Made by a program: the position numbers and the translations under genes. From Mycobacterium phage prophiT46-2: a stretch of DNA of 64,000 nucleotides. The stretch lies in sequence record OQ417970.1; one strand, 5' to 3'. Positions 63,973-64,000 of this stretch are shown here, one piece after another. Each line of letters starts with the position of its first letter. The first letter of the stretch is position 1. The notes beneath the pieces are model-generated. The model did no database searches. It had not been told where the DNA came from and saw nothing but the letters and a program-made list of their open reading frames with translations.

Positions 63973-64000
63973 CAAGGGGTTCGATTCCCCTTAGCTCCAC
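63973..64000 (+). other. tRNA 3'-end-like fragment (T-arm ggggttcgattcccc plus acceptor tagctccac) without a matching 5' half
   Basis: T-loop GGTTCGATTCC consensus present; upstream 70 nt do not fold into the D and anticodon arms. Confidence 0.4.

Follow-up and report, generated by a model that had tools for sequence, protein, structure and literature searches.

A tRNA-Ala 3'-end fragment at the right attachment junction (attR) of prophiT46-2, a MabL prophage of Mycobacterium abscessus T46

Prophages that integrate at tRNA-Ala genes

In phages that target tRNA genes, attP carries the 3' end of the tRNA; integration restores the tRNA at one junction and leaves a 3' fragment at the other. Mycobacteriophage L5 (tRNA-Gly) and systems of the P4 and P22 type have their integrase gene beside attP and encode a small HTH excisionase; the prophage described here resembles them in both respects and is unlike them only in its target tRNA and core length. 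Its closest relatives are M. abscessus prophages of cluster MabL, which is now grouped with cluster AD. Two tRNA-Ala attachment sites concern us here. In the entries of Table S1 of Dedrick et al. (2021, PMC8092301) used in this work, attB-10, the site of the MabL prophages described, is the 3' end of tRNA-Ala Mab_t5041c (core TTCGAGT), and attB-3, occupied by prophage GD17-1 of cluster MabD, is the 3' end of tRNA-Ala Mab_t5017 (core TTCGATT).

The prophage prophiT46-2 was reported in M. abscessus T46 by Amarh et al. (2023, PLoS One, PMC9934374) at C2 346212–411463 (65,252 bp; cluster MabL; attB-3); S1 Table of that paper gives JAQLTS000000000 as the accession of T46 and SRR19357825 as that of its sister strain T45. 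The stretch of DNA that we analyzed (the window; 64,000 nucleotides, G+C ~64%) is JAQLTS010000002.1 (contig 2 of T46) 347464–411463, that is, window position 1 is contig position 347464 and window position 64000 is contig position 411463. Using an exact-protein match to the leftmost window gene (recorded start, the ATG at window 92), we retrieved a locus of the same contig, L005, whose first base is contig position 337555; L005 9910–20735 is 100% identical to window 1–10826. The published right end, 411463, is the last base of the window, and the published left end, 346212, corresponds to L005 position 8658, where the attL core begins; apart from its first 1,252 bp (attL core and integrase gene), the whole prophage is in the window.

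Of window 1–20000, 84% aligns at 95.7% to prophiGD88-1 and prophi_GD43-6, both of cluster MabL; this similarity places prophiT46-2 in the cluster, clusters being defined by at least 35% shared gene content, and Amarh et al. (PMC9934374) also assigned it there. The other MabL prophages (prophiGD43A-6, prophiGD88-1, prophiT48-1, and prophiT49-1; PMC8092301) resemble prophiT46-2 in the early region (~95.7% identity), in a homologous attR arm, and in gene order (int, membrane protein, repressor, cro, excise ... lysis, toxin-immunity cassette, attR); however, they use attB-10, their core has one different base in the T loop (TTCGAGT vs TTCGATT), and their toxin-immunity cassette is different. The record of prophi_GD43-6 opens with AGGGGTTCGAGTCCCCTTAGCTCCACCATA, continues with a tyrosine integrase gene, and closes with a repeat of those 30 bp; therefore, both prophage ends in this phage group are marked by such a fragment. 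In contrast, prophiGD17-1, the MabD prophage first reported at attB-3, shares with prophiT46-2 the tRNA-Ala gene Mab_t5017 and a core that contains the same 28 bp, but its core is longer (39 bp in the record), its genome is unrelated, and its 440-aa tyrosine integrase is unrelated (best BLASTP 21.9 bits).

The features of the window that bear on its attachment sites and gene content are as follows.

1–63974, plus strand: body of prophiT46-2, cluster MabL, assigned from the 100% identity of 1–10826 to JAQLTS010000002.1, an identity of 95.7% with MabL prophages in its first 20 kb, and the published coordinates.
807–1244, minus strand: immunity repressor, 145 aa, with an HTH_3 domain (PF01381, 33.2 bits), in the position of the annotated prophi_GD43-6 repressor.
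1739–2029, plus strand: excisionase-like protein, 96 aa, with an HTH_17 match (PF12728) of 25 bits, below the cut-off of 27; position and size match the 'excise' gene 5 of prophi_GD43-6.
60367–61101, minus strand: cognate immunity protein, 244 aa, lying under matches to 'polymorphic toxin immunity protein', with no Pfam domain.
61105–63027, minus strand: polymorphic toxin, 640 aa, whose C terminus is a Tox-REase-5 nuclease domain (PF15648, 31.2 bits).
63036–63365, minus strand: small protein encoded upstream of the toxin and assigned from its position as the partner; it lies under blastn matches to 'WXG motif protein' genes of related prophages and has no Pfam match.
63419–63850, plus strand: last prophage gene, 143 aa, counterpart of gene 93 of prophi_GD43-6 (the translations align), with no Pfam or NCBIfam match.
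63851–63974, no strand assigned: phage-side arm of attR, intergenic between the last prophage gene and the core, homologous to the arm of prophi_GD43-6.
63975–64000, plus strand: attR common core, the first 26 of its 28 bp (AGGGGTTCGATTCCCCTTAGCTCCAC), with the final CA outside the window; the core is a second copy of the T arm, 3' acceptor strand, and CCA found in tRNA-Ala(CGC).

The paired cores and excision of prophiT46-2

The original prediction, made from the window sequence alone, described the last 28 nucleotides (63973–64000) as the T arm and 3' acceptor strand of a tRNA. This description holds for 26 of them, 63975–64000, which comprise a 5-bp T stem (AGGGG and CCCCT) enclosing a 7-nt T loop (TTCGATT), a 7-nt 3' acceptor strand (TAGCTCC), the discriminator A, and the first C of CCA; it fails for the first two (CA), which are not derived from a tRNA. 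The complete repeated core is 28 bp, 63975–64002, and its last two bases (CA) lie just past the window edge. We took the right flank from L003, a read-set assembly of strain T45 (SRR19357825) that was retrieved through the last window gene and matches the final 695 bp of the window at 100% identity. ARAGORN found no tRNA or tmRNA in the window, nor in the sequence reaching 9.8 kb past its edge (L003, 10.5 kb), and Rfam at gathering thresholds gave no match; therefore, the upstream bases are without a 5' acceptor strand, D arm, or anticodon arm, in agreement with the claim that the 70 nt preceding the fragment cannot form these parts. Running ARAGORN on the flank had been proposed as a check, and no intact tRNA appeared once L003 was included; this test was flawed in that sequence beyond the edge could only add CA, because the missing 5' parts of a plus-strand tRNA would fall inside the window.

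The partner tRNA was expected to the left of the window, and it is there. ARAGORN identifies an intact tRNA-Ala(CGC) at L005 8610–8685 (window −1299 to −1224), 1.2 kb left of position 1; this gene ends in 28 bp, AGGGGTTCGATTCCCCTTAGCTCCACCA, that are identical (28/28) to 63975–64002 and have the same orientation. The gene for a 374-aa tyrosine integrase (L005 8762–9886; window −1147 to −23) starts 77 bp downstream of this tRNA; the protein scores 75.8 bits against PF00589 (cut-off 27.1), and the HDLRH, LGH, and TY motifs are seen in the alignment. Thus, the search that had been suggested, for a second copy beside an intact tRNA and for a tyrosine integrase upstream of position 1, located both. 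In an 83.8-kb composite built from L005, the window, and L003, the same 28-mer occurs exactly twice, as a direct repeat at window −1251 to −1224 and 63975–64002, and no further copy of the core is found in the composite even with five mismatches; the left copy completes the intact tRNA, and the right copy is an orphan 3' fragment without a tRNA body. An intact tRNA emerging with the flank and the lack of a direct repeat at the other prophage end had been named as outcomes that would count against this reading, and neither occurred. As a separate observation, the integrase type is printed as 'S' in Table 2 of PMC9934374; this conflicts with the PF00589 tyrosine integrase and is probably a misprint.

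The span bracketed by both core copies is 65,254 bp (65,226 bp with one core counted) and includes the toxin-immunity cassette, so the proposal that the prophage and the 'toxin island' (about 64 kb) form one integrated unit is borne out. The record of Amarh et al. (PMC9934374) stops at ...CTCCAC (65,252 bp), and the exact repeat is 2 bp longer; otherwise, there is no difference of substance. The paired cores, the integrase, and the coincidence of the published prophage end with the last base of the window likewise bear out the idea that a tyrosine-integrase element left a displaced tRNA 3' half at attR. We conclude that the fragment at the window edge is almost certainly the attR junction of prophiT46-2, a MabL temperate siphovirus-type prophage integrated in M. 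abscessus T46. This attR is an ordinary feature that has already been published.

Excision can be followed in silico from the same sequences. When the left side of attR is joined to the right side of attL with one core between them, the published attP primers (F1 is window 63783–63802; R1 maps within int) yield a product of 444 bp, the listed size (PMC9934374); the reciprocal join (simulated attB) gives an intact tRNA-Ala. The attP PCR was scored +++ in both cultures and filtered supernatants (PMC9934374); therefore, the element excises at these sites. Exact-pattern scans gave no match to the free attP junction in viral contigs and no match to the empty attB in metagenomes. The mechanism is standard site-specific recombination by a tyrosine integrase: the phage attP holds the 28-bp tRNA end, and the integrase recombined attP with the tRNA-Ala gene (attB), which rebuilt an intact tRNA-Ala at attL, next to int, and left the displaced 3' copy at attR. 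All of the DNA between the cores, including the ESX-secreted polymorphic toxin-immunity cassette, is one 65-kb unit that, by the published attP PCR, is still able to excise. Because both cores are identical, the assignment of one copy to the phage and the placing of the crossover point are inferred, as are the arm-type integrase sites (vide infra).

The right flank and alternative explanations

The L003 assembly continues the window with CA and then with host DNA, AGAGGTCTTACTCG... (CCA-agaggtc). The host DNA of L003 (700–10545) contains dndA (minus strand), dndBCDE, and a methyltransferase-like gene; the dnd genes (2439–8790; 6,352 bp) begin 1,742 bp after the CCA of the fragment. This right-hand DNA is the known M. 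abscessus DNA-phosphorothioation island, adjoining the same tRNA-Ala. In the reference strain ATCC 19977, the dnd cluster (Mab_1093c–1097) occupies 1,104,494–1,110,845, again 6,352 bp; the GD17-1 attB-3 core has its first base at 1,102,715, which puts the CCA end of the tRNA at 1,102,752; from these published coordinates, the distance from tRNA-Ala to dnd is 1,742 bp, equal to the spacing from fragment to dnd in L003. The part of Dedrick et al. (2021, PMC8092301) used here enters the ATCC 19977 prophage at attB-5 and lists none at attB-3. Given the equal 1,742-bp spacing, the orphan fragment therefore takes the place that, by published coordinates, the end of the intact tRNA has in a genome whose attB-3 is unoccupied.

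Two further candidates were considered for this region and rejected. Integration at attB-10, as in the closest MabL relatives, is at odds with the T loop TTCGATT, which is the core of Mab_t5017, and with the upstream host genes and dnd, which lie near 1.10 Mb of the reference. For L003 628–2113 (minus strand), the idea of a decayed large serine recombinase was unsupported by Pfam, NCBIfam, PDB sequences, and blastn/tblastn searches against phage records.

Could the edge be the start of an intact RNA gene that runs past the window? Such a gene would be a tRNA or a tmRNA of the two-piece (permuted) kind, in which the T arm and 3' acceptor strand lie ahead of the rest. When the last 500 bases are scanned permissively with Rfam, tmRNA models do align to 63975–64000 (positions 86–111 of the beta-proteobacterial tmRNA model, and the permuted tmRNA model), and both alignments are flagged as 3'-cut. 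The end of tmRNA resembles an alanine tRNA, that is, TAGCTCC-A-CCA is of the alanine type common to tRNA-Ala and tmRNA, so a partial tmRNA alignment is expected; moreover, the scores are 20.3 and 19.2 bits versus gathering scores of 84 and 47, and only the tRNA-like end (T arm and acceptor strand) is covered. Mycobacterial tmRNA is one-piece. Past the window edge come CA and unrelated DNA, and ARAGORN predicts neither a tRNA nor a tmRNA over the 10.5 kb; attB-11, the tmRNA site of M. abscessus, differs in its core (PMC8092301). A tmRNA or permuted tmRNA start was rejected on these grounds (a match of only 26 nt, far below threshold, and a flank without such a gene), and we consider any RNA gene running past the edge to be exceedingly improbable. 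The same holds for a reading unrelated to integration, in which the fragment is a tRNA-like hairpin that arose by chance or the decayed pseudogene of a phage-encoded tRNA, and for which nothing speaks but the absent tRNA body: the fragment is 28/28 bp identical to the host tRNA-Ala's 3' end and located exactly at the prophage boundary, a 25-mer of it occurs once in the window and in none of 100 shuffles (three mismatches allowed), and an equivalent fragment is found at both ends of related prophage records. This explanation, too, has next to no probability.

A further proposal adds to the attR assignment and does not contradict it: the fragment might be the shared junction of tandem islands, that is, both the attR of the prophage and the tRNA-proximal border of a dnd island that was inserted earlier at the same tRNA-Ala. 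In its favor, dndA and dndBCDE start 1.7 kb to the right of the fragment, the dnd island is located directly after tRNA-Ala in the reference strain (by coordinates), and dndDB describes the M. abscessus dnd cluster as a 19.6-kb island with 59.0% G+C in a genome of 64.1%. However, the mobility-gene column of dndDB is 0 for this island, the 9.8 kb to the right of the fragment contain no extra core copy (five mismatches allowed) and no visible integrase, and searches of Pfam, NCBIfam, PDB, and phage records gave no match for the ORFs that separate the fragment from dndA. We regard an earlier insertion of the dnd island at this tRNA as possible, though less likely than not; the assignment of the fragment as attR of prophiT46-2 is the same with or without it.

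Gene content and choice of attachment site

Pfam searches of the window detect the Tox-REase-5 domain, the lysin A amidase, and the HTH repressor. The repressor gene is divergent from the cro-like and excise genes, and the repressor and excisionase-like genes complete the lysogeny module; the product of 1739–2029 is likely the recombination directionality factor. At the other end of the prophage, just past its last gene, a perfect hairpin (63861–63887; 12-bp stem, 3-nt loop) followed by a T-rich tail, TTAGGTTTCC, looks like a terminator; prophi_GD43-6 has a hairpin at the same place with a different sequence. The phage-side arm of attR also contains AGGTC three times with a spacing of 10 bp (at 63900, 63910, and 63920; 63900–63924), and prophi_GD43-6 has this triplet in its own attR arm; these repeats may be arm-type integrase sites and are our candidates for them.

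The lysis cassette (57020–59721) contains lysin A with an Amidase_2 domain and an overlapping long ORF with weak cutinase and hydrolase matches. The long ORF is probably lysin B; the mechanical starts of the two genes overlap by ~730 nt, and the true start of lysin B is probably further downstream.

In several M. abscessus prophages, genes for polymorphic toxin, immunity, and WXG proteins match the last 4 kb of the window, and related M. abscessus prophages have a cassette in the same position, just inside attR. The toxin gene has 87% nucleotide identity to the annotated polymorphic toxins of prophi62-2, GD11-3, and GD08-3; the toxin-immunity-WXG cassette (60367–63365) as a whole is closest (87%) to prophi62-2, prophiGD11-3, and prophiGD08-3 and not to the MabL relatives. 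This affinity outside MabL fits the published exchange of cassettes between prophages.

The core in the window carries TTCGATT, the attB-3 version. Compared with the integrase of an attB-10 MabL prophage (prophi_GD43-6), the integrase of prophiT46-2 matches at 80% overall, with 54% in residues 1–75, 80% in the central part, and 89% in the catalytic domain, while the early genes beside it have ~96% DNA identity; the int-attP module looks to have diverged alongside the switch in target tRNA-Ala, with the N-terminal arm-binding part the most changed. Near-identical integrases (99.5–99.7%) are encoded by related prophages in two further assemblies; in GCA_015499585.1 (an isolate of subsp. bolletii), the integrase also follows tRNA-Ala(CGC), and in the second (a read-set assembly), the contig starts just upstream of int, so the tRNA is out of view. 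These comparisons suggest, tentatively, that the int-attP module of prophiT46-2 is a natural retargeting of a MabL phage from attB-10 to the attB-3 tRNA-Ala paralogue, a reading to which we assign somewhat less than an even chance. The use of attB-3 is already in the literature, and only the mechanistic retargeting reading would be new.

As a side observation on the target gene, the 76-nt tRNA-Ala(CGC) is identical in 93 loci of species-representative genomes (Nocardia, Mycolicibacterium, Dietzia, Williamsia, and others); the same scan returned no Mycobacteroides representative, although T46 and the bolletii isolate have the exact sequence.

The attR assignment sets the right boundary of a published M. 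abscessus prophage that still excises; past correct annotation it matters little, and it confirms that a reader with only the sequence is able to recognize attR from the 3' fragment of a tRNA. The assignment also shows that the toxin-immunity cassette moves as part of the phage, not as an island of its own. If the retargeting reading is true, that is, if few changes set the choice of site, prophiT46-2 and its attB-10 relatives would be a compact natural pair for mapping a change in tyrosine integrase specificity; near-identical MabL phages on two tRNA-Ala genes may help the study of integrase specificity or the choice of integration vectors for M. abscessus.
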